The position numbers and the translations under genes were made by a program. From contig JBQCGH010000127.1 in assembly GCA_051955835.1 (NCBI GenBank), positions 4,590-68,589 of the forward strand: a DNA stretch of 64,000 nucleotides. Direction: 5' to 3'. How positions within the stretch are numbered: position 1 is the stretch's first letter; every line of letters begins with the position of its first letter. Below are positions 31,591 to 56,533 of this stretch, in pieces. The notes under the pieces are model-generated. The model was not told where the DNA came from, did not search any database, and worked only from the letters and a program-made list of their open reading frames with translations. Source of the stretch: Gemmatimonadales bacterium (GTDB taxonomy: Bacteria > Gemmatimonadota > Gemmatimonadetes > Gemmatimonadales > GWC2-71-9).

Positions 31591-32706
31591 TCAGGACTTG
31601 GACGTGCTGGTTGTCCGGCCGCTGCGCGACCGCGATTCCGCGCCCTCGTGGTGCTCACTGTCACCGCTGCCCTTGCGGCCAAGGCCGCGGCGTGCCTGCA
31701 GCTGGTTGTGGACCTCGTTCACCCCTGAGCAGCGCTCGACGACTTCCTCGGCGAGCCGCTTGGTGTGGCGGTCGTCCACCGTACCCGTAAGGGTGACTTC
31801 GCCGTTGTTCACCGTGACATCGATCTCAGTGGCGTCGATGTCGGGATGCCGCGTGAGCTCTTCGTTCACGTCCTCGCGAATGCGGTCGTCGGAGCGCTGG
31901 TAGTTGCGGGGGCCGCGACCGAAATGCTGCCCGGCCTGTTGGCCATATCCTTCCTGGCCGTAGCCCTGCTGGCCGTAGCCCTGCTGGCCATAGCCCTGTT
32001 GGCCATAGCCCTGTTGGCCTTGCTGGCCATAGCCCTGGCCGTATCCCTGGTGGAGAGAGCTGCCCCCATAGCCCTGCTGACCACCCTGCCCGCCTTGCCC
32101 GTAGTTGCTCCAGCCGGAACCCTGCCCATACCCGCCTTGACCGCTGTAACCCGAGCCGTACATGCCCTGGCCCTCGCGCATCTGCCACTGACCACGGCCG
32201 CCCTCGTACCCTTGCCCGTATCCGCCCTGCCCATAGCCGCCCTGATGTGGCTGTCCCCACATGCCTGGGCCGGAGCCGCCCTGGCCGTACTCATGACTCT
32301 GTCCCATACCTTGACTGTAGCCGCCCTGATGGCTCTGTCCGTATCCGCCGCCACCCTGGCTGTACCCACCTTGTCCGCCCCACCCGGGCTGTCCGTAACC
32401 GCCTTGTCCGTACCCTTGACCATACGTCTGACCGTACCCGCCTTGGCCGTACATGCCCTGGCCGCTCTGACTGTACCCGCCTTGCCCGTACCCACCTTGC
32501 CCATAACCGCCCTGAGCATATCCACCCTGGCCGTACCCGCCCTGGCCATATCCACCCTGCCCGTACCCGCCGCCTCCCTGCGTGTACCAGCCGTGCTGCC
32601 CGGGGAAATCACGCTGGCCTCCCTGCTGCCAATCGCGCTCGTTTGAGCCTCCGCGACCGCCTTCCCGGAACCGGTCGCCAGAAGTGTTGTAATCGTCGCG
32701 AGCCAT
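31591..32706 (-). CDS. BON-domain protein with a long N-terminal Gly/Tyr/Gln low-complexity domain
   Basis: Start trimmed to ATG 32706 ([13 protein letters not shown]), with AGGA 8 nt upstream. About residues 44-260 are almost only G, Y, Q, S, with many GGYGQ units. C-terminus is BON: [64 protein letters not shown]. Confidence 0.85.
31927..32577 (-). repeat. Degenerate coding tandem repeat (GGx-TAy-GGx-CAr units) encoding the GYGQ low-complexity domain
   Basis: Repeated ccctg(c/t)tggcc(g/a)tagcc units are visible on the plus strand. The repeat generates several long spurious ORFs in other frames (31765-32646 +, 31866-32612 -). Confidence 0.85.
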
Positions 32707-33123
32707 GCTGACCATCCTGTAGGACTGAGGGTTCACGCCACGCCGGTCGCGGAGACCGCGGCACGGCAGGGCGTGCGAGTGCTCGTTGCGGTGCCGACCG
32801 CGAGAGGACGCGGGCCGGCGTGTTCGAGGTCCTGCTTTTCGTGGTTGCGGGGAACGCGCGGAGCGAACGGCGGGGACGACCACTGCGGCAACGTCTCTGC
32901 AACCACGTGCGGGAACCTAGTCGGCACTGCGGAAGACCACTGTGACTGCGCTCACCGGAAGCGACATGGCTCAAACCAGCGATGTGCGAGATTCTCGCGA
33001 TTCACCGGGCGTCGGAACGCCAACGCGCAGCCGTCTCCGAGGGAGACTGTGCTGGTCCGAGTTGTGCGGCATATTTCCGGTCCAGCCGGGCAATTCCCTC
33101 TTTCGACAACCGCCGGAGCACTC

Positions 33124-46947: not shown

Positions 46948-48204
46948 TTACGCCGCCGCTTCCGCGCTTCCCACATCGTCCGCCGGGCAGCGGCCGCGCC
47001 AGGTGTAGCGGTCGAAGAACGCGCGCGCCTGTTCGAGGTCCGCCGGGTGAAAGTACCCCGGGCCCAGCGCGTCGCAGCCCTCGAGCGCGATTCGCGCCAG
47101 ATCGCCCGCGGTCCGCGCCAACGCCGGGTCGCGCAGGCCCGCGCGTCCGGCCCGCTCGAGCAGCTCCACGTCGGGCGCGCCAAGCAGATCGGTGGCCGCC
47201 CGAAGCGCGCGCGGATCGTACGCAATGCCCACTGCGAGCGCGAGCGGCGCCGCGTACCACTGGGGCGCCACGGCATCGGCCGAGCGCAGCTCGAAGTGCC
47301 CCCGCGGCCGGACCTCCGGGAACAGCGTCGTCAAGTGATCGTGCCAGTCCTCGGCGCTCGCCTCGCCCCGCTCGACCCAGGTCTCGAATGCGAGGTACTC
47401 GCCATCGACCGTAGGACGCAGGAGCGCGGGCGCCGCCAGCGCGAAGTCGAGATAGGCCTCGACCGGCGCGCTCGCGCTCCACGGCAGCCCCGTGCGCGCG
47501 GGATCGAGTGTCCGCCACACGTGGGCTCGCGCGCTCGCGCACTCCGTCCGCTTCCCGGCATAGACCGCGGAATTGGCGAAAATCGCCACGGTGTATGGCG
47601 CCGCCGAGTTGAGGACGCGCCAGCGCTGCCAGGGCTCGTCGTCCAGATCGAGCGCGACCTGGAAGGCGGCGGTCTGCCGCATCATCATCGCGCCGGTCGG
47701 ACCGCGCGTGGCGAGATAGTCGGCCATGCGCTGGTACCGCTTGGTGCGAAGCAGGAGCGGCGCGCCGTCGATCACGTTGTACGGATCGATGCCCACGGCG
47801 AGCAGCGTGATGCCGTCGGCCGCCGCCGCCGCGCGGAGCGGCAGCACGATCGAGCGGAGCAATCCGAGCAGGGCACTGGGGCTCGGACACGGGGGTGCGC
47901 TGTATTCGAGCTGGCCGCCAGGCTCGAACGTCAGCGTCCCGCCATCCGGCAGCCCAAAGCACGGCGTTCCTTTGGCGGTACGCGTTTCCGTCCAGCCCTG
48001 CCGGCGGCCGAACCGGCGCAGGAACGGCAGCGTCGCCGGCAACCCGTCGTCTTCGATGGGACATCGGCGTCCCGTCGCCGTCTCGACCGGGAGGAACTCG
48101 GCCTCGGCCCCGATCCGGCGAGGCGTCAGTGACGCGCGGGCGGGAGCGCCGAACGCTCCGGTCGCGAGATCAGCGGCGAGTGCGGCGCGCGTGAGCGACG
48201 TCAT
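46948..48204 (-). CDS. egtA: Glutamate-cysteine ligase family 2 (EgtA-type)
   Basis: RIGAEAEFLP...GTLTFEPGGQLEYS... GCS2 pattern. ATG 48204 overlaps the egtD stop (ATGA). Confidence 0.7.
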   Translation of the reverse strand: MTSLTRAALAADLATGAFGAPARASLTPRRIGAEAEFLPVETATGRRCPIEDDGLPATLPFLRRFGRRQGWTETRTAKGTPCFGLPDGGTLTFEPGGQLEYSAPPCPSPSALLGLLRSIVLPLRAAAAADGITLLAVGIDPYNVIDGAPLLLRTKRYQRMADYLATRGPTGAMMMRQTAAFQVALDLDDEPWQRWRVLNSAAPYTVAIFANSAVYAGKRTECASARAHVWRTLDPARTGLPWSASAPVEAYLDFALAAPALLRPTVDGEYLAFETWVERGEASAEDWHDHLTTLFPEVRPRGHFELRSADAVAPQWYAAPLALAVGIAYDPRALRAATDLLGAPDVELLERAGRAGLRDPALARTAGDLARIALEGCDALGPGYFHPADLEQARAFFDRYTWRGRCPADDVGSAEAAA

Positions 48205-49172
48205 GCCGGCGCGCCCAGCACCAGCCCGAACGGCGTGGTCGGATCGCGCGGCCACGCCTCGATGGTGAGCCCGGCCGCCGCGAACAGCTCGGCCACGCTC
48301 TCCCGGTCGTACTTGGTGCTGATCTCGGTGCGGATCGACTCGCCCTGGGCGAGCGCGAGCGGCTCGAGCCCCGGAATGTTTACGGTCTGATGGCGGCTCG
48401 AGACCAGGTGCATCTCGATCCGGTGCGCCACCCGGTCGTAGAACGCGCGGTGCTCGAAGGCGCTGGGATCGAAGTCGGCGCCCAGCTCGTGATTCAGCAC
48501 CAGCAGCATGTTGCGGTTGAACTCCGCGGTGATACCCCGGCTGTCGTTGTAGGCCGCCTCCACCCGCGCGATGTCCGTGCGCAGGTCCACGCCGAGCAGG
48601 AAGCGATCCCCCGGACCCATAGCCGCGCGCACGCGCTGGAGAAGCCGGATGGCCGCCGGCGGATAGAAGTTGCCGATGGTGCTGCCGAGGAAGGCGAACA
48701 GCCCCGGCCGCGGGAGCCGCCGCGGCAGGTTGAGCTCGACGGCGATGTCGGCCACCGCGGGCTCGACCGCGAGGCCGGGATACTCGCGGCGGAGCTGCGC
48801 CGCCGTCTGGCTCAGGAAGGTGGCGCTCACGTCGATCGGCACGTACCGTTCGGCCAGGCCGGTGGCGCGCATCGCGTCGAGAATGATGCGGCTCTTCTCG
48901 GCATTGCCGGCGCCCAGCTCGATCAGCGTGCGAGTGCCGAGCTGGCGCATGAGCTCCGGCATCCAGCCGGTGAGCAGCGCGCGCTCGGTCCGCGTCGGGT
49001 AGTACTCGGGAAGGCGGGTGATCTCTTCGAACAGCTCGGAGCCGCGCTGGTCGTAGAAATATTTGGGCGACAGCTCTTTCTGCGGCGCGGTCAGGCCGGC
49101 GGCCACCTCGGCGAGCATGCCGGGGTTGGGGACGTGCTCGGGCCGGCTCGCGCGGGTACGGGCATTAGGCAT
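48201..49172 (-). CDS. egtD: L-histidine N-alpha-methyltransferase
   Basis: PKYFYDQRGSELFEEITRLPEYYPTRTE, ELGAGNAEKSR, FLGSTIGNF, LLGVDL, AYNDSRGITAEFNRN. Very close to the mycobacterial EgtD pattern. Confidence 0.9.
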   Translation of the reverse strand: MPNARTRASRPEHVPNPGMLAEVAAGLTAPQKELSPKYFYDQRGSELFEEITRLPEYYPTRTERALLTGWMPELMRQLGTRTLIELGAGNAEKSRIILDAMRATGLAERYVPIDVSATFLSQTAAQLRREYPGLAVEPAVADIAVELNLPRRLPRPGLFAFLGSTIGNFYPPAAIRLLQRVRAAMGPGDRFLLGVDLRTDIARVEAAYNDSRGITAEFNRNMLLVLNHELGADFDPSAFEHRAFYDRVAHRIEMHLVSSRHQTVNIPGLEPLALAQGESIRTEISTKYDRESVAELFAAAGLTIEAWPRDPTTPFGLVLGAPA

Positions 49173-50490
49173 CGCGGGCGCACCTGAAGCCGCTGAAGAT
49201 CTGGCGGCGGATGGGGTAGTCCCAGTTGCGGAACGTGTTGCGAATCGCCCCTGGGCGGGTGGCCCACGAGCCGCCGCGCAGGACCTTGTACTCGGTGCCG
49301 AAGAAGACCTCGGAGTATTCCTTGTAGGGGAAGCTCTCGAACCCGGGCCACGGCGCGAAGTCGCTCGACGTCCACTCCCACACGTCGCCGATCATCCCAT
49401 GGCAGCCGATCGGTGAGACGTTCTGCTCGTAACTCCCGATCGGCGCGGTGCCGAACGCGAGCTGGTCCACGTTGGCCAGCGTGCGGTCGGCCGGGGCCTC
49501 GCCCCACGGGAACCTCCGCTTCGTCCCGCTGGCCGGGTCCCATGACGCCGCCGCTTCCCATTCAACCTCGGTGGGCAGCCGCTTGCCGGCGAACCGGGCG
49601 TAGGCCTCCGCTTCGTGATAGCACACGTGACAGACCGGGTGCCACGGATCCACCGGTTCGAGCCGGTCCATAGTCCGCGTAGTCCAGCCGTCGGCGTAGC
49701 GCCAGTATTTGGGCCCCCGGGCGGCACTCTCCGTCCGCCACTGCCAGCCGGCCTCGGACCACAGCTCGGGGGTCTCGTATCCACCCGCGCCAATGAACAC
49801 CAGGAAGTCCCCGTTGGTGACGGGCTGCGCGTCGATCCAAAACGGCGCCAGGTCCACCATGTGGGTCGGGCGCTCGTTGTCATAGGCCGCCGAGCGGTCG
49901 TCCGTGCCGATCTCGACCCTCCCGCCGGGAAACAGCACCATCTCGCCGGGGCGGGCCGCCCGCCGCGGCGAGCTCCCGTTGCCCGCTGGCACTCGCACGA
50001 GCGGCGTGTATGGCGCGCCGCGCTTGAGCTGCAGCGTCTGGAGCATCGTTTCGTTGTGCTGGTATTCGTGCTGGAGGACCATGCGGTAGACGAACCCGTC
50101 GCGCAGCAGCTGGTGCGCCGGATCGAAGTCAGCCGAGACCAGCCGGGCCAGCACGCGGCCGCGGATCTCGTCCATGATCGCGCGACACTCCGCGAGCCCC
50201 GGCAGCGGCAGCGCGGCACGCGTGCTGCGCGGGTGTTCGAACGGGTTGTACATCCCGGGCATCTCGACGAAATCGATCGGCCCGTCGAGGTTCTGCGTGA
50301 GCCAGAGCTCCTCGAAGTGCGCGATATGTCCCAGGTCCCACAGAATCGGACTCATCAGCGCATCGTGCTGGGCGTGCAGGTCCTCGTCGCTGAGCGGCGC
50401 CACGAGCAGCAGCGTGCGCGCGCGGGCCTCGAGCAAGTCGTCGGCGATCATCTCCGGGGCGAAACGGCTCGGTGCGGCCGCCACCGTCAT
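49165..50490 (-). CDS. egtB: Ergothioneine biosynthesis sulfoxide synthase (DinB_2 plus FGE-sulfatase domains)
   Basis: SPILWDLGHIAHFEELW (DinB-like His motif), HEYQHNETM, VTNGDFLVF, CHVCYHEAEAYARFAGKRLPTEVEWE, RGGSWAT. Confidence 0.9.
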   Translation of the reverse strand: MTVAAAPSRFAPEMIADDLLEARARTLLLVAPLSDEDLHAQHDALMSPILWDLGHIAHFEELWLTQNLDGPIDFVEMPGMYNPFEHPRSTRAALPLPGLAECRAIMDEIRGRVLARLVSADFDPAHQLLRDGFVYRMVLQHEYQHNETMLQTLQLKRGAPYTPLVRVPAGNGSSPRRAARPGEMVLFPGGRVEIGTDDRSAAYDNERPTHMVDLAPFWIDAQPVTNGDFLVFIGAGGYETPELWSEAGWQWRTESAARGPKYWRYADGWTTRTMDRLEPVDPWHPVCHVCYHEAEAYARFAGKRLPTEVEWEAAASWDPASGTKRRFPWGEAPADRTLANVDQLAFGTAPIGSYEQNVSPIGCHGMIGDVWEWTSSDFAPWPGFESFPYKEYSEVFFGTEYKVLRGGSWATRPGAIRNTFRNWDYPIRRQIFSGFRCARDA

Positions 50491-53113: not shown

Positions 53114-54703
53114 TCAGGCCGCGCCCGCCTCTCGCGCCTCACGCCGCTCGCGCTCCGCGTCGCGCAGCAGCGGCAGCTCGAGCCCATCGCACAGTGCCAT
53201 CCAGCTCGCCTCGAGGATGTTCTCGCTGCAGCCCACCGTGCTCCAGCGCTCGGCCTCACGTGCGGACTCGATGATGACCCGCGGCCGCGCCGCCGTGCCG
53301 AGGTGCTCGTCCACGATCCGCACCTTGTAATCCACCAGGTGCACCTCGGCGAGCCCCGGGTAGTGCGGCAGCAGCGCCTTCCGCACCGCCTGGTCCAGCG
53401 CGTTCACGGGCCCCTCCCCCTCGGCGGCGGTGTGCACCATCTCCTCGCCCACGCGAATCCGCACCGTGGCCTGAGCGCGGCTCGGGCCCGCCCCGCGCTT
53501 CTCCACCAGGACGGTGAAGTCCTCCATCACGAACGGCGCCCGATAGTCCGGCGCCGCTCGGCGGAGCAGCATCTCGAACGAGCCCTCCGCCGCCTCGAAC
53601 TGGAACCCCCGATGCTCCAGCTCTTTGATCCGCCGCAGCACATTGGCCTCGGCCCCGACAGCATCGAGGCCGAGCGCCTCCGCCCGGAGCCGCACATTCC
53701 GCCGACCCGCGACCTCGCTCACCACCACGCGCATCTCGTTTCCCACGGCCGCAGGGTCCACGTGCTGATAGCTCTCCGGCAGCTTGGCGATGGCGGCGAC
53801 GTGGATGCCCCCCTTGTGCGCGAATGCGCTCCGCCCGACGTACGGCGCGTGGGGGTCGGGATGTTGATTGGCCACGGCAGCCACCAGGTGGCTCACTTCG
53901 GCGAGCCGGGCGAGCCCACCGGGTAAGAGCGCACGGACGCCCAGCTTGAGCTCGAGGGTCGCGACCAGGGGAACGAGGTCCAGGTTGCCGCACCGCTCGC
54001 CATAGCCGTTGATGGTGCCCTGCACCTGGGTGCAGCCGGCGCGCACCGCGGCCAGTCCGTTGGCGACCGCGAGCCCGGCGTCATTGTGCGGGTGAATACC
54101 GATCGGGACGGCGAACCGGTCGCGCACCTCGGCGATCCGGTCCGCGACCACGTCGGGCAGCTCACCGCCGTTCGTATCACACAGCACCAGCCAGGCCGCG
54201 CCGGCACCGGCGGCAGCCGCCAGCGTCTCGAGGGCGTAGGCCGGGTCGAGCCGGCAGCCGTCGAAGAAGTGCTCGGCGTCGTAGACCACCTCGCGTCCGA
54301 GGCGAGCGAAGAAAGCGACGCTCTCCGCGATCATCCGAAGGTTCTCCTCGCGGGACGTTTCGAGGACCCGGTCCACGTGCAGGGTCGAGGCCTTGCCCAC
54401 CAGCGTCACGACCGGCGTCTCGGCGCTCAGCAGGGCCAGCAGGCTCGGGTCGCTCTCGCAGGTGATCCCCGGCCGGCGGGTGCTGCCGAACGCCGCCACA
54501 CGGGCGTGCGCCAGCGGCGCGTCCCGGATCCGCTCGAAGAATTCGGCATCCTTGGGGTTCGATCCCGGCCAGCCGCCCTCGATGTAGCTCACGCCCAGGC
54601 GGTCGAGCGCCCGGGCGATCTTCAGCTTGTCGTCCACCGACAGCGAGCAGCCCTCGCGCTGGGTGCCGTCGCGCAGCGTCGTGTCATAGAGCCGTACCGT
54701 CAT
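53114..54703 (-). CDS. cimA: (R)-citramalate synthase (LeuA-related)
   Basis: MTVRLYDTTLRDGTQREGCSLSVDDKLKIARALDRLGVSYIEGGWPGSNPKDAEFF. 529 aa. HPHNDAGLAVANGLAAV. C-terminal LeuA-allosteric-type domain. Confidence 0.85.
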   Translation of the reverse strand: MTVRLYDTTLRDGTQREGCSLSVDDKLKIARALDRLGVSYIEGGWPGSNPKDAEFFERIRDAPLAHARVAAFGSTRRPGITCESDPSLLALLSAETPVVTLVGKASTLHVDRVLETSREENLRMIAESVAFFARLGREVVYDAEHFFDGCRLDPAYALETLAAAAGAGAAWLVLCDTNGGELPDVVADRIAEVRDRFAVPIGIHPHNDAGLAVANGLAAVRAGCTQVQGTINGYGERCGNLDLVPLVATLELKLGVRALLPGGLARLAEVSHLVAAVANQHPDPHAPYVGRSAFAHKGGIHVAAIAKLPESYQHVDPAAVGNEMRVVVSEVAGRRNVRLRAEALGLDAVGAEANVLRRIKELEHRGFQFEAAEGSFEMLLRRAAPDYRAPFVMEDFTVLVEKRGAGPSRAQATVRIRVGEEMVHTAAEGEGPVNALDQAVRKALLPHYPGLAEVHLVDYKVRIVDEHLGTAARPRVIIESAREAERWSTVGCSENILEASWMALCDGLELPLLRDAERERREAREAGAA

Positions 54704-54718
54704 GACCGCTCCGGGATG

Positions 54719-54754
54719 AAAAACGACGCGGCCTCTCGTCGGAGAGGCCGCGTC
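54719..54754 (-). terminator. Perfect intrinsic terminator located inside the cimA 5' leader (attenuator)
   Basis: Minus strand reads GACGCGGCCTCTC-CGAC-GAGAGGCCGCGTC (13-bp perfect stem), then G-TTTTT. It ends 15 nt before the cimA ATG, and GGAG lies in between. No upstream minus-strand gene exists for it to terminate. Confidence 0.8.
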
Positions 54755-54777
54755 GATCGGTGACTTGGGTCTGGTCG

Positions 54778-54855
54778 CTACCCGCGCGCCGGCGCGCCTC
54801 TCGAGGAGAGCCGGGCAATAATGCCGTGGGGCCGGACCGCGCGGATGTTCGTCAT
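54778..54855 (-). promoter_or_regulatory. Candidate 25-codon leader peptide ORF with tandem ATT-ATT Ile codons
   Basis: ATG ACG AAC ATC CGC GCG GTC CGG CCC CAC GGC ATT ATT GCC CGG CTC TCC TCG AGA GGC GCG CCG GCG CGC GGG TAG = MTNIRAVRPHGIIARLSSRGAPARG. No SD, and the ATG lies only 11 nt after the -10 box. Confidence 0.35.
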
Positions 54856-54866
54856 ACGGATGAATA

Positions 54867-54896
54867 CTTATACATTGCAGGCAGGGCGGACGTCAA
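54867..54896 (-). promoter_or_regulatory. Sigma-70-like promoter for the cimA leader
   Basis: Minus strand reads TTGACG (54896-54891), an 18-nt spacer, then TATAAG (54872-54867). It sits in a locally AT-rich patch of the divergent cimA/sufE intergenic region. Confidence 0.5.
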
Positions 54897-54995
54897 GCAT
54901 GCCGCCCACGACCAGGGGTACCTTCCGGTCCCGTGGCGTGGCACCTTTCCGGGAGCCACGCGTGTTTTATTACGTTCGTTGCCACTGAGTCGACC

Positions 54996-55412
54996 ATGTC
55001 CTCGCTCGACACCCTGATTCCGCGGTTCAAGTCCGCCGACCGGACGACTCGCCTGGAGACCCTGCTGGACTATTCGCGGAAGCTGCCGCCGCTCCCGGCC
55101 GAGTATCAGGATGCCAAGGCGCGGGGCGAGCATCGCGTCCACGAGTGTCAGACGCCGGTCGACCTCTGGGTGGAGGTGGACCAGGGCAAGGTGCACATCC
55201 ATGCCGACGTGCCGCCCGAGTCGCCCACGGTGCGGGGGTTCATCTCGCTGCTCGCGCGCGCCCTCGAGGGCGCCGATCCCGCGGACGTGGCCAGGGTGCC
55301 GGACGATCTGCTGGACCAGCTCGGCTTGAGCGAGACCCTCGGCATGACCCGCACCCAGGGACTCACCGCGATTCTCTTCCGGATCAAACGCTCCGTGGCC
55401 GCCGCCGCCTGA
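54996..55412 (+). CDS. sufE: SufE-like cysteine desulfuration (sulfur acceptor) protein
   Basis: RLETLLDYSRKLPPLP...RVHECQTPVDLWVEV (conserved Cys)...SPTVRGFISLL...GLSETLGMTRTQGL. Start trimmed to ATG 54996. Confidence 0.85.
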   Translation: MSSLDTLIPRFKSADRTTRLETLLDYSRKLPPLPAEYQDAKARGEHRVHECQTPVDLWVEVDQGKVHIHADVPPESPTVRGFISLLARALEGADPADVARVPDDLLDQLGLSETLGMTRTQGLTAILFRIKRSVAAAA

Positions 55413-56533
55413 TGCTCGGCGTCCTCGAGCTCGCCGGCCGCGGCAACGGCTTCCTTCGCCGCCGCGAGGCCGGTTACCTGCCCGATCGCGGCGATGTCCA
55501 CGTCGGGGAGCGGGTGATCCGCCAGTACGAGCTGCGCCCGGGCGACGAGATCGAGGGCCAGACCCGTCCGGGCGGCAAAGGACGTGGCCCGACGCTGGAG
55601 AAGGTGACCGCGCTGGGAGGGCGCGCGCCCGCCGACGTCCGCCGCCGCCCCGATTTCAGCCGCCTCGGCGCCATCCATCCCAACGAGCAGCTCCGGCTCG
55701 AGTGCGGCCTCGTCCGCCAGGGCCAGCCCGACTATACCAACCGGGTGATCGACATTCTCTGCCCCTTCGGCAAGGGTCAGCGCGCCCTCATCGTGGCCCC
55801 GGCGAAGGCCGGCAAAACGATGGTGCTGCAGAGCATCGCGGAGGGGATCAGCACCAACTACCCGCAGGCCACCCTGTACATGCTGCTGGTGGACGAGCGG
55901 CCCGAGGAAGTGTTCGAGATGGAATCGATGGGTGTGGGCGAGGTGATTGCCTCGAGCTTCGACAACCCCGCCCAGCAGCACGTCTCCGTCGCGGAGCTCA
56001 CCCTCGAGCGCGCGCGCCGTCGGGTGGAGATGGGCGAGGACGTGGTGATCATCGTGGACTCGCTCACGCGGCTCGCGCGGGCGTACAACACGGTCGAGAA
56101 GGGCACGGGCCGGACCCTGTCGGGGGGGCTCGATGCCCAGTCGCTCGAGCGGCCCAAGCGATTTCTCGGCAGCGCGCGGAAGATCGATGAGGCGCAGGGC
56201 GGCGGCTCGCTCACGATCATCGCGACGGCGCTGGTGGATACCGGCAGCCGGATGGATCAGGTGATCTTCGAGGAGTTCAAGGGCACCGGCAACAGCGAGC
56301 TGGCACTGAGTCGGGAGCTGGCCGAGCGGCGGATCTTTCCGGCAATCGATCTCGTCGCCAGCGCGACGCGCCGGGAGGAGCTGCTCCTCTCACCCGAGGC
56401 GCTGGCCGTGAGCCGGATGCTCCGGCAGCGGCTCGCCGGCATGACCCCGATCAACGCCATGAACGATCTGCTCACCGACCTTCGGCGCAATCGCACCAAC
56501 GAGGAGCTCGTCCGGGCGCTCGCGGCCGGCTGA
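55412..56533 (+). CDS. rho: Transcription termination factor Rho, lacking the N-terminal helical (Rho_N) subdomain
   Basis: Begins at the equivalent of E. coli residue ~48 (GVLELAGRGNGFLRR). P-loop APAKAGKT, LLVDERPEEV, SLTRLARAYN, GGGSLTIIATALVDTGS, EFKGTGNSEL, FPAIDL. The ATG overlaps the sufE stop (TGATG). Confidence 0.9.
   Translation: MLGVLELAGRGNGFLRRREAGYLPDRGDVHVGERVIRQYELRPGDEIEGQTRPGGKGRGPTLEKVTALGGRAPADVRRRPDFSRLGAIHPNEQLRLECGLVRQGQPDYTNRVIDILCPFGKGQRALIVAPAKAGKTMVLQSIAEGISTNYPQATLYMLLVDERPEEVFEMESMGVGEVIASSFDNPAQQHVSVAELTLERARRRVEMGEDVVIIVDSLTRLARAYNTVEKGTGRTLSGGLDAQSLERPKRFLGSARKIDEAQGGGSLTIIATALVDTGSRMDQVIFEEFKGTGNSELALSRELAERRIFPAIDLVASATRREELLLSPEALAVSRMLRQRLAGMTPINAMNDLLTDLRRNRTNEELVRALAAG

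Follow-up and report, generated by a model that had tools for sequence, protein, structure and literature searches.

The leaders trpL, ilvL (of ilvGMEDA), and thrL are the classical leader-peptide attenuators of enterobacterial amino-acid operons, whereas T-box leaders are the usual tRNA-sensing control of the Ile/Leu/Val genes in Firmicutes and some other phyla. Here, we describe the leader of cimA, the gene for citramalate synthase, in a stretch of 64,000 nucleotides (nt) from Gemmatimonadales bacterium (Gemmatimonadota; GenBank assembly GCA_051955835.1, contig JBQCGH010000127.1, positions 4,590 to 68,589 of the forward strand), which is hereafter referred to as the window. An initial annotation, made from the letters of the window alone, had proposed that transcription of cimA is attenuated in a manner that depends on isoleucine (Ile) codons in a leader peptide, and a comparison of 24 leaders supports this proposal. 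The leader is likely to act by ribosome-mediated (leader-peptide) attenuation, so that cimA would be transcribed according to how much charged tRNA-Ile is available.

The cimA leader shares with trpL, ilvL, and thrL a short open reading frame (ORF) with codons for the end product, four regions predicted to form either the 1:2 and 3:4 pairings or the exclusive 2:3 pairing, and an intrinsic terminator directly ahead of the first structural gene. The regulatory codons are just two, and adjacent, as they are in trpL. In contrast, the cimA leader has no sequence or Rfam kinship with these three leaders, its host belongs to Gemmatimonadota, and cimA is missing in enterobacteria. The signal would be Ile alone, and not Ile/Val/Leu or Thr/Ile as for ilvL and thrL. 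In addition, the cimA leader ORF, unlike those of the enterobacterial leaders, lacks a Shine-Dalgarno (SD) sequence and starts 5–11 nt past the −10 hexamer. The likeness to T-box leaders lies in the proposed sensing of tRNA charging and in the choice between terminator and antiterminator; the cimA leader, however, has neither a specifier loop nor a T-box sequence, and the sensing would proceed via a translating ribosome.

Systems from other high-G+C or leaderless contexts are closer in some respects. Candidate leader peptides and terminators have been reported upstream of ilvB in Corynebacterium, Mycobacterium, and Streptomyces (Seliverstov et al., 2005, PMC1262725), and these share with the cimA leader a high G+C content, a very short ORF, few branched-chain codons, and a terminator before a branched-chain gene. 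They differ from it in phylum, gene, and sequence family; the covariance model described below, run on cimA loci only, gave no match beyond the Gemmatimonadota-type ones. For Deinococcus deserti, mapped transcription starts have led to the prediction of 14 leaderless leader peptides (PMC4007540), and mycobacterial leaderless polycysteine short ORFs act as cysteine-responsive attenuators (bioRxiv 10.1101/834739). The cimA leader resembles both in that its ORF would lie at or beside the 5′ end of the transcript, lacks an SD sequence, and is rich in the relevant amino acid. In contrast to the cimA leader, for which a leaderless start is suggested by the distance between promoter and ATG, those systems have mapped starts, and the mycobacterial one also functional tests; the amino acid and the target gene differ as well.

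Results

Layout of the leader upstream of cimA

The leader elements fill the 292-bp spacer between cimA (53114–54703, minus strand) and the divergent sufE gene (ATG near 54996, plus strand); all positions in this section are on the minus strand. The sequence and the comparison with homologs place a −35 hexamer, TTGACG, at 54891–54896 and a −10 hexamer, TATAAG, at 54867–54872, separated by an 18-nt spacer. This is the promoter of the initial annotation, re-read at the same position. An automated promoter scan listed no promoter at the cimA leader, because the scan demands T as the last base of the −10 hexamer and hence skipped TATAAG. An ATG located 11 nt past the −10 hexamer opens the leader ORF, which comprises 25 codons and a TAG (MTNIRAVRPHGIIARLSSRGAPARG; 54778–54855) and is not preceded by an SD sequence.

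The adjacent Ile codons 12 and 13 (ATT ATT, 54817–54822), to which attention had been drawn at the outset, were found at the expected place in this ORF; they are the proposed site of ribosome stalling and belong to an Ile cluster that is kept in homologs. A further Ile codon, codon 4 (ATC, 54844–54846), is distant from the hairpins and varies in position among homologs, and is probably not regulatory. Region 1 (CTCTC, 54806–54810), which lies 9–13 nt past the first base of the second ATT, is the 5′ arm of a small 1:2 hairpin, CTCTC-CTC-GAGAG (54810–54798). Region 2 (GAGAGGCGCGC, 54792–54802) is the alternative partner of region 1 or of the 5′ arm of the terminator. A G+C palindrome (GCGCGCCGGCGCGC, 54784–54797) follows towards the stop codon and overlaps the 3′ part of region 2; in the predicted fold, it helps to lock region 2 away. 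The small hairpin and the palindrome are both present as originally described.

After the TAG, a linker of 22 nt leads to the terminator, which consists of region 3 (5′ arm, CGACGCGGCCTCTC, 54742–54755), a CGAC loop (54738–54741), region 4 (3′ arm, GAGAGGCCGCGTCG, 54724–54737), and a U tract, TTTTT (54719–54723). The initial annotation had described a perfect stem of 13 pairs followed by a G; the perfect stem, the loop, and the TTTTT hold, and the stem length is corrected to 14 perfect pairs (54755–54724, −29.7 kcal/mol). The TTTTT ends 16 nt ahead of the cimA ATG (54703), which is preceded at a distance of 5 nt by the SD sequence GGAG (54709–54712), in the order originally given.

The whole leader folds more stably than its shuffles (z = −3.1). 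The window DNA is about 70% G+C and canonical terminators are scarce in it: only two perfect stems with 7 bp or more and a T4 directly after them were found on both strands of the whole 64 kb, and the one at cimA is far stronger. In a shuffle test for terminator-like sites in 3.5 kb, one site was found against 1.0 expected, which is not significant.

Conservation of the leader among Gemmatimonadota cimA loci

Related leaders were collected from Gemmatimonadota-type cimA loci whose CimA proteins are 63–89% identical to that of the window. Together with the window, these gave 24 distinct leaders, of which the other 23 came from a genome collection (L001, L004, L005, and L007), from metagenome contigs (L081–L091), and from contigs encoding eight of the closest proteins (L161–L169). 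The named records among the homologs are Gemmatimonadales or Gemmatimonadaceae metagenome-assembled genomes (MAGs).

All 24 leaders exhibited the same order of parts, namely ORF, Ile cluster, small hairpin, stop, linker, and terminator. In each of them, the leader ORF has 19–35 codons with 1–5 Ile codons, the stop codon lies about 7–8 codons past the AGA-GG motif of the small hairpin, and the terminator has 8–21 pairs and a T-rich tail and ends 8–43 nt ahead of the cimA start. The linker between stop and terminator varies from 12 to 28 nt. Most leaders have the Ile cluster immediately 5′ of region 1, whereas L007 and L091 have it in the loop of the 1:2 hairpin; in L164, with its single Ile codon, the cluster is weak. 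Leader peptides of the homologs include MTGFPASRPGIIPLRLASRGGARARG, MPVTRTLGNIIPLRLSPRGGAPARG, MRSRIVHRPITSITIRLFARGGVPALG, MSIRCGIRPITSIAIRLSQRGGVPALG, MSLVRLALIPLSIIRPFPRGGALAHG, and MRMQPAAVTVIAGRRPSTGSPAIAIISRRGPRPAR. The leader is kept with cimA whatever the upstream gene, which may be a divergent sufE or a same-direction gene for a peptidase, glutamate dehydrogenase, or another protein.

A covariance model of the leader, R1, matched all 25 of these loci with E ≤ 1.6e-6. The model gave no match in about 145 cimA loci of other phyla, and no second copy was found elsewhere in the 64-kb window.

Alignment of related cimA leaders had been put forward as a check for conserved Ile codons and covariation, and it revealed that all 24 leaders keep ORF, Ile cluster, stop, and terminator. 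It also bears on the case, named in the initial annotation as pointing to a different mechanism, of a conserved hairpin without conserved ORF and Ile codons; since the ORF and the Ile cluster are kept, the outcome favours the attenuator. The leader element is real, because it is kept in every close relative examined.

Reading frame and isoleucine codons of the leader ORF

Isoleucine triplets in the leaders were strongly frame-specific: ATT, ATC, and ATA (ATH) occurred 68 times in the ORF frame, compared with 4 and 3 in the remaining two. Ile accounted for 10.7% of the leader codons, compared with 3.8% in 38 likely window genes (14,264 codons). The swaps between ATT and ATC from one leader to another are synonymous and retain Ile. 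In addition, the conserved AGA-GG motif is separated from the start codon by 33, 48, 51, 54, 57, or 81 nt, all of which are multiples of three, and the ORF segment ahead of the Ile cluster is variable in length and not conserved in sequence. The frame-specific Ile codons, the length changes by whole codons, and the start geometry described below argue that the leader ORF is read as codons.

In the 3′ half of the leader peptide (R-L-x-x-R-G-G...), conservation extends to all three positions of the codons and includes a rare AGA; it reflects RNA pairing and not a function of the peptide. The other two frames, in which TTA TTG would read Leu-Leu, were rejected: in many leaders the ATG is overlapped by a TGA, and most of the sequences offer no start codon in them.

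ATT made up 60% of the Ile codons in the leaders, versus 10% of those in the window genes, where it occurs at 3.9 per 1000 codons. The impression, originally gained by eye, that ATT is rare in the window genes was thus correct. ATT is normally read via wobble by the same tRNA as ATC, and enterobacterial leaders use rare codons. By analogy, the preference for wobble-read ATT plausibly sharpens the response of a two-codon sensor.

Mutually exclusive pairings and their covariation

Region 2 is GAGAGGCGCGC in the window and GAGAGGCGGCGC in most homologs, and region 1, which is CTCTC in the window, is extended to CCG-a-CUCUY in most homologs. The partner of region 2 in the terminator is the loop-proximal part of the 5′ arm (GCG-GCCUCUC), and the duplex of regions 2 and 3 in the window has a predicted energy of −17.2 kcal/mol. 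This duplex corresponds to the antiterminator proposed initially, in which GAGAGGCGCG within the leader ORF pairs with GCGGCCTCTC of the terminator; the pairing proved to be conserved and to change in concert with the terminator in three lineages.

The structure statistics were computed on a MAFFT alignment (A2). The 2:3 pairing was formed in 93.6% of the cells, compared with 43–53% when the partner was slid by 1–3 columns. Three of its pairs had changed on both sides, and only 1 of 500 shuffles reached the observed number of double-changed cells. For the terminator and the 1:2 hairpin together, 88.3% of the cells were paired and 10 pairs exhibited compensatory changes, and none of 500 shuffles reached the paired fraction, the double-changed cells, or the covariation score. 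The terminator helix alone contributed 8 pairs with compensatory changes among the homologs, and the 1:2 helix was paired in 86% of the cells. For the hairpin formed from the G+C palindrome, the sequence is kept in the close clade and no convincing covariation was found beyond it in the same alignment; this hairpin was not retained as an element.

The cores of regions 2, 3, and 4 change together. They read GAGAGGC / GCCUCUC / GAGAGGC in most leaders, GAGGGGC / GCCCCUC / GAGGGGC in L004 and L005, GGGAGGC / GCCUCCC / GGGAGGC in L084, and CCGGGGGCC / GGCCUCCGG / CCGGGGGCC in L007 and L091, where the register is shifted by one. Among the sequence comparisons, the joint change of the three regions is the most telling evidence for an alternative pairing. 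The three-way pairing constraint on regions 2, 3, and 4 also accounts for the near-invariance of the terminator core, which is unlike that of ordinary terminators.

In a constrained fold of the nascent window leader, extending through the terminator loop, the region 3 core formed 0 of 7 pairs into the ORF when no ribosome was placed. When bases 1–49 of the same leader were masked, as for a ribosome with Ile13 in the A site, 6 of the 7 were formed.

Promoter and start-codon geometry

A sigma-70-type promoter was recognisable in 22 of the 24 leaders, as TTGAC[GAC], a spacer of 16–18 nt, and a −10-like hexamer, which at the same place reads TATAAG, TATAAA, TATAGA, TAGTAT, or TATACT. The start codon lies 5–11 nt past the −10 hexamer in 21 of the 24. 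This spacing is 5–7 nt in 10 leaders, which appears compatible with a 5′-terminal AUG, and 9–11 nt in 11 leaders, including that of the window (11 nt), which would imply an untranslated leader of about 3–5 nt. Three leaders fall outside this range; two of them, L004 and L005, carry about 48 nt of untranslated sequence, in which a GGAG lies 11 nt ahead of the ATG.

The absence of an SD sequence and the very short untranslated leader had been listed as caveats in the initial annotation. Because the short distance from −10 hexamer to start codon is itself a conserved feature, the missing SD sequence is best explained by leaderless or nearly leaderless translation, and it looks like a property of the system and not a defect.

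In L089 (1849–1908), a leader ORF lacks a promoter of its own and shares bases (GTGA) with the stop codon of the upstream gene. The ORF encodes V/M-IIPIAIPRWTRGSVPAFR up to the stop codon, with four Ile in the first seven codons. The overlap suggests translational coupling at this locus, and not leaderless initiation.

Comparison with Rfam families and the literature

No model of Rfam 15, including the Trp, Thr, His, Leu, and Leu/Phe leaders, reached its gathering score anywhere in the window. The T-box model (RF00230) likewise gave no match at the gathering score in the whole window and none at E ≤ 10 in 54600–55050. The best sub-threshold match was to RF02883, BcKCsr2, at 54718–54822 on the minus strand, with 21.4 bits against a gathering score of 40 and an E of about 0.005–0.01 for the short stretch searched; it spans exactly from the ATT ATT to the U tract. 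BcKCsr2 is nc5U15, a 5′-untranslated-region-derived RNA of unknown function in Burkholderia (PMC10987360). This match and the miRNA-like matches (a bare hairpin) seen at E ≤ 10 were set aside as probable chance or generic similarity among G+C-rich hairpins and terminators. The full-text literature gave no description of cimA attenuation or of Gemmatimonadota leader peptides, with incomplete coverage, so that absence is not proven.

The regulated gene and its neighbours

The cimA gene encodes a protein of 529 residues that matches the NCBIfam equivalog TIGR00977 (citramalate synthase) with 655.5 bits (cut-off, 450). It failed every isopropylmalate/homocitrate synthase model, the LeuA and NifV scores being far under their cut-offs. 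The identification as a TIGR00977 citramalate synthase is the reason that an Ile signal fits the biology. The nearest relatives are 79–89% identical, and those that carry a name are citramalate synthases of Gemmatimonadales MAGs; the closest match in the genome collection, also a Gemmatimonadales MAG, has 69% identity. In the window, cimA is monocistronic, since an ada-like gene on the other strand converges on its 3′ end.

On the divergent side, sufE is directly followed by rho (54996–56533, plus strand), which encodes a short Rho without a long N-terminal extension. In the homologous loci, the called sufE and rho genes overlap by one base and the pairing is kept, which suggests that sufE and rho form an operon, divergent from cimA. 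In the stretch separating the cimA promoter from sufE (54900–54965), an inverted repeat, GTGGC-N12-GCCAC, was observed within ...GGCTCCCGGAAAGGTGCCAC... and is followed by the motif GGACCGGAAGGTACCCC; the repeat and the motif recur together in L161, and the motif alone also in L162. Both may be promoter or operator sequences of sufE-rho, and their conservation says little because the relatives are close.

cimA loci of other phyla and other features of the window

Rfam searches of 20 cimA loci from other phyla identified no T-box or other family. A generic scan of other cimA loci for short ORFs with Ile runs returned a few cases with attenuator-like anatomy. In a control covering all 20 amino acids, however, Ile-run ORFs occurred in 5 of 136 loci and were no commoner than Leu-, Arg-, or Ser-run ORFs; therefore, no general claim on cimA attenuators is made, and the Ile-run cases outside Gemmatimonadota are leads, not a finding.

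One such lead is a Desulfobacteraceae-type candidate attenuator upstream of cimA in L046 (~210–400), L154 (~1780–1960), and L050 (~165–340). A TTGACA promoter is present, together with a leader ORF in which Ile, Val, and Leu abound (for example, MRNVINNSIVIISATGILVSLLLLLVLELKPPGLIMT up to the stop). A clear terminator, AAAATCCGTTATCAGG...CCTGATAACGGATTTTTTTTT, comes next, and its 5′ arm is exactly complementary to the last part of the ORF, GGCCTGATAA. Model R1 did not match the candidate in any of the three loci. In L014, a Bdellovibrionales MAG, the region upstream of cimA (~2790–2920) contains a leader ORF encoding MFNKVWTPNLHNISIIKLIEIISARCGPSF up to the stop and a terminator, GCCCGCATC-GAAA-GATGCGGGC-TTTTTTTTT; the sequence GATGCGGGC also occurs within the ORF and can pair with the 5′ arm of the terminator. 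This locus is an apparent further Ile attenuator of cimA, unrelated in sequence. The Chloroflexota loci L023 (~2850–2900) and L015 (~2810–2880) contain short ORFs with I-I-I-I runs, MLNVSMSITAIIIIG and ...CISIIIIGQG, each ending at a stop codon; a strong hairpin that lacks a T tract comes after each of them. Short ORFs containing Ile also lie upstream of cimA in L006, L031, L051, and L153.

The other perfect-stem terminator of the window (31566–31544, 9 bp and TTTTT) is an ordinary 3′ terminator of the gene at 31591–32883 (minus strand). This gene encodes a protein with long low-complexity QGGYGQ repeats and a C-terminal part that is BON-domain-like by eye. The segment 46948–50490 (minus strand) has the look of an ergothioneine-type cluster, with an EgtB-like gene (49165–50490, minus strand; DinB_2 and FGE-sulfatase in homologous loci), an EgtD-like methyltransferase gene (48201–49172), and a glutamate-cysteine-ligase-like gene (46948–48255, minus strand), the latter two recognised by eye only.

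Discussion

A model for attenuation of cimA

The present analysis in silico established the elements of the leader, their conservation, the frame-specific Ile codons, and the mutually exclusive pairings with their covariation. From these we infer the start site, the translation of the ORF, the footprint geometry of the ribosome, the sharpening by ATT, and the response to isoleucine in vivo. In terms of sequence, the cimA leader has these structural marks of a leader-peptide attenuator: an ORF, Ile codons, a terminator, and a predicted antiterminator pairing that excludes it.

In the proposed mechanism, transcription would begin a few bases past TATAAG, so that no more than about 5 nt would separate the RNA 5′ end from the leader ORF, which would be translated without an SD sequence. 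When Ile-tRNA is plentiful, the ribosome would pass the ATT ATT, reach the TAG, and cover or flank region 2. After its release, region 2 would be held by region 1 and the neighbouring G+C-rich helices. With region 2 held in this way, the 14-bp terminator of regions 3 and 4 would form and the polymerase would stop 16 nt before the cimA ATG. Conversely, when Ile-tRNA is scarce, the ribosome would stall with the second ATT in the A site, and its footprint, reaching about 12 nt downstream, would cover region 1. The free region 2 would then pair with the 5′ arm of the terminator once this is made, the terminator would be pre-empted, and the polymerase would enter cimA. The extra citramalate synthase would feed the pyruvate route to 2-oxobutyrate and isoleucine.

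Several observations weigh against this mechanism. The regulatory codons are few: two adjacent Ile codons in the window and in most close relatives, and one in L164. The initial annotation had raised the low number of Ile codons as a caveat, and with 1–5 per leader it stands as a real limitation. The 1:2 hairpin alone is weak in the window (−3.6 kcal/mol). Equilibrium folds show the expected switch in the window and in only about half of the homologs, and about half of the homologs form the 2:3 pairing at equilibrium in the nascent RNA without a ribosome; therefore, default termination must rest on folding kinetics and on the position of the ribosome. Only about three independent concerted changes back the 2:3 pairing. 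When the ORF segment was mononucleotide-shuffled against the terminator arm, 21 of 300 shuffles were as good as the window (z = −1.6); such scores are only modest because any G+C-rich segment pairs well, and the slide controls and the concerted changes were therefore relied on for the 2:3 pairing. In addition, the sequences are related, with an effective number of 4.66 in the covariance model, and the sequence counts hence overstate the independent events. In L007 and L091, the position of the Ile codons within the loop of the 1:2 hairpin is a variant geometry and a weak point. Finally, in the group to which the window belongs, an ATG 11 nt past the −10 hexamer would leave 4–5 nt untranslated, which may be poor for true leaderless initiation.

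Alternative explanations

An attenuator that works independently of the ribosome was considered, in which the choice between the 2:3 and 3:4 pairings would fall to a small molecule, a tRNA (T-box-like), or an RNA-binding protein and the ORF would be a by-product of the high G+C content. The lack of an SD sequence, the ease with which long ORFs arise by chance at 70% G+C where stop codons are rare, and the conservation of the 3′ half of the peptide as nucleotides, third positions and the rare AGA included, which indicates an RNA constraint, all speak for it. However, a by-product ORF would leave unexplained the concentration of ATH triplets in one frame, the fixed short distance of the start codon from the −10 hexamer, and the restriction of length changes to whole codons. 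Moreover, no T-box or riboswitch model matched even at E ≤ 10, and, once the Ile codons and the four pairing regions are set apart, no conserved sequence is left from which a ligand pocket could be built. We consider this explanation unlikely. Even less credible would be an attenuator that is coupled to translation and responds to a signal other than Ile, such as general translation capacity, the rare Arg codons AGA and CGA, or Thr in the I-T-S-I-T-I variants. Arg makes up 17% of the leader residues and the rare AGA is invariant, but the AGA lies inside region 2, where a stalled ribosome would mask the antiterminator and favour termination, and its invariance follows from the participation of GAGAGG in the pairing. 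Thr codons stand between the Ile codons in some clades, whereas Thr is absent from the cluster in the clade of the window itself. Although some leaders have just 1–2 Ile codons, no residue other than Ile combines an enrichment of about 3-fold over background with a placement at the 1:2 hairpin throughout the leaders, and the regulated enzyme is specific to the Ile pathway.

The remaining alternative, to which we would assign the lowest probability of all, is that the promoter, ORF, and terminator constitute an independent small gene or small RNA, with cimA having its own promoter or some other regulation. The unit does have its own promoter and a very strong terminator, and the weak, sub-threshold match to RF02883 is to a Burkholderia 5′-untranslated-region-derived small RNA family. 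Nevertheless, the terminator ends so close to the cimA start, both in the window and elsewhere, that there is no room for a separate cimA promoter. Among the cimA loci and the window searched, the unit turned up solely ahead of cimA, with which it travels, and the conserved pairing that destroys the terminator would have no purpose in a free-standing gene. The leader-peptide attenuator responding to Ile is thus the explanation that we favour.

In addition to its action in cis, the terminated leader RNA (~135–145 nt) or the 25-residue Arg/Gly-rich peptide might function in trans, for which the trp attenuator RNA rnTrpL and the peptide peTrpL of Sinorhizobium provide a precedent (PMC6614838, PMC7298713). 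By analogy with that case, such a function is conceivable here and seems very improbable. If true, it would explain the near-invariance of the 3′ half of the ORF and of the terminator core despite CimA identities as low as 63%; the three-way pairing constraints, however, already explain this near-invariance.

Implications

The mechanism by which the cimA leader would work, on the evidence of its sequence, is long known and in itself unsurprising. Classical leader-peptide attenuation would be extended to the little-studied Gemmatimonadota and to cimA, a description of either being absent from the full texts searched. The preference for ATT would be a clean natural example of codon choice tuning sensitivity where there are two regulatory codons, and the compact element of about 180 bp could serve as an Ile-responsive genetic part in high-G+C hosts. 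The conserved geometry of promoter and start codon suggests leaderless translation in Gemmatimonadota. Finally, the Ile-only signal would argue from regulation, and independently of homology, that isoleucine synthesis is what the TIGR00977-type enzyme serves in these bacteria.

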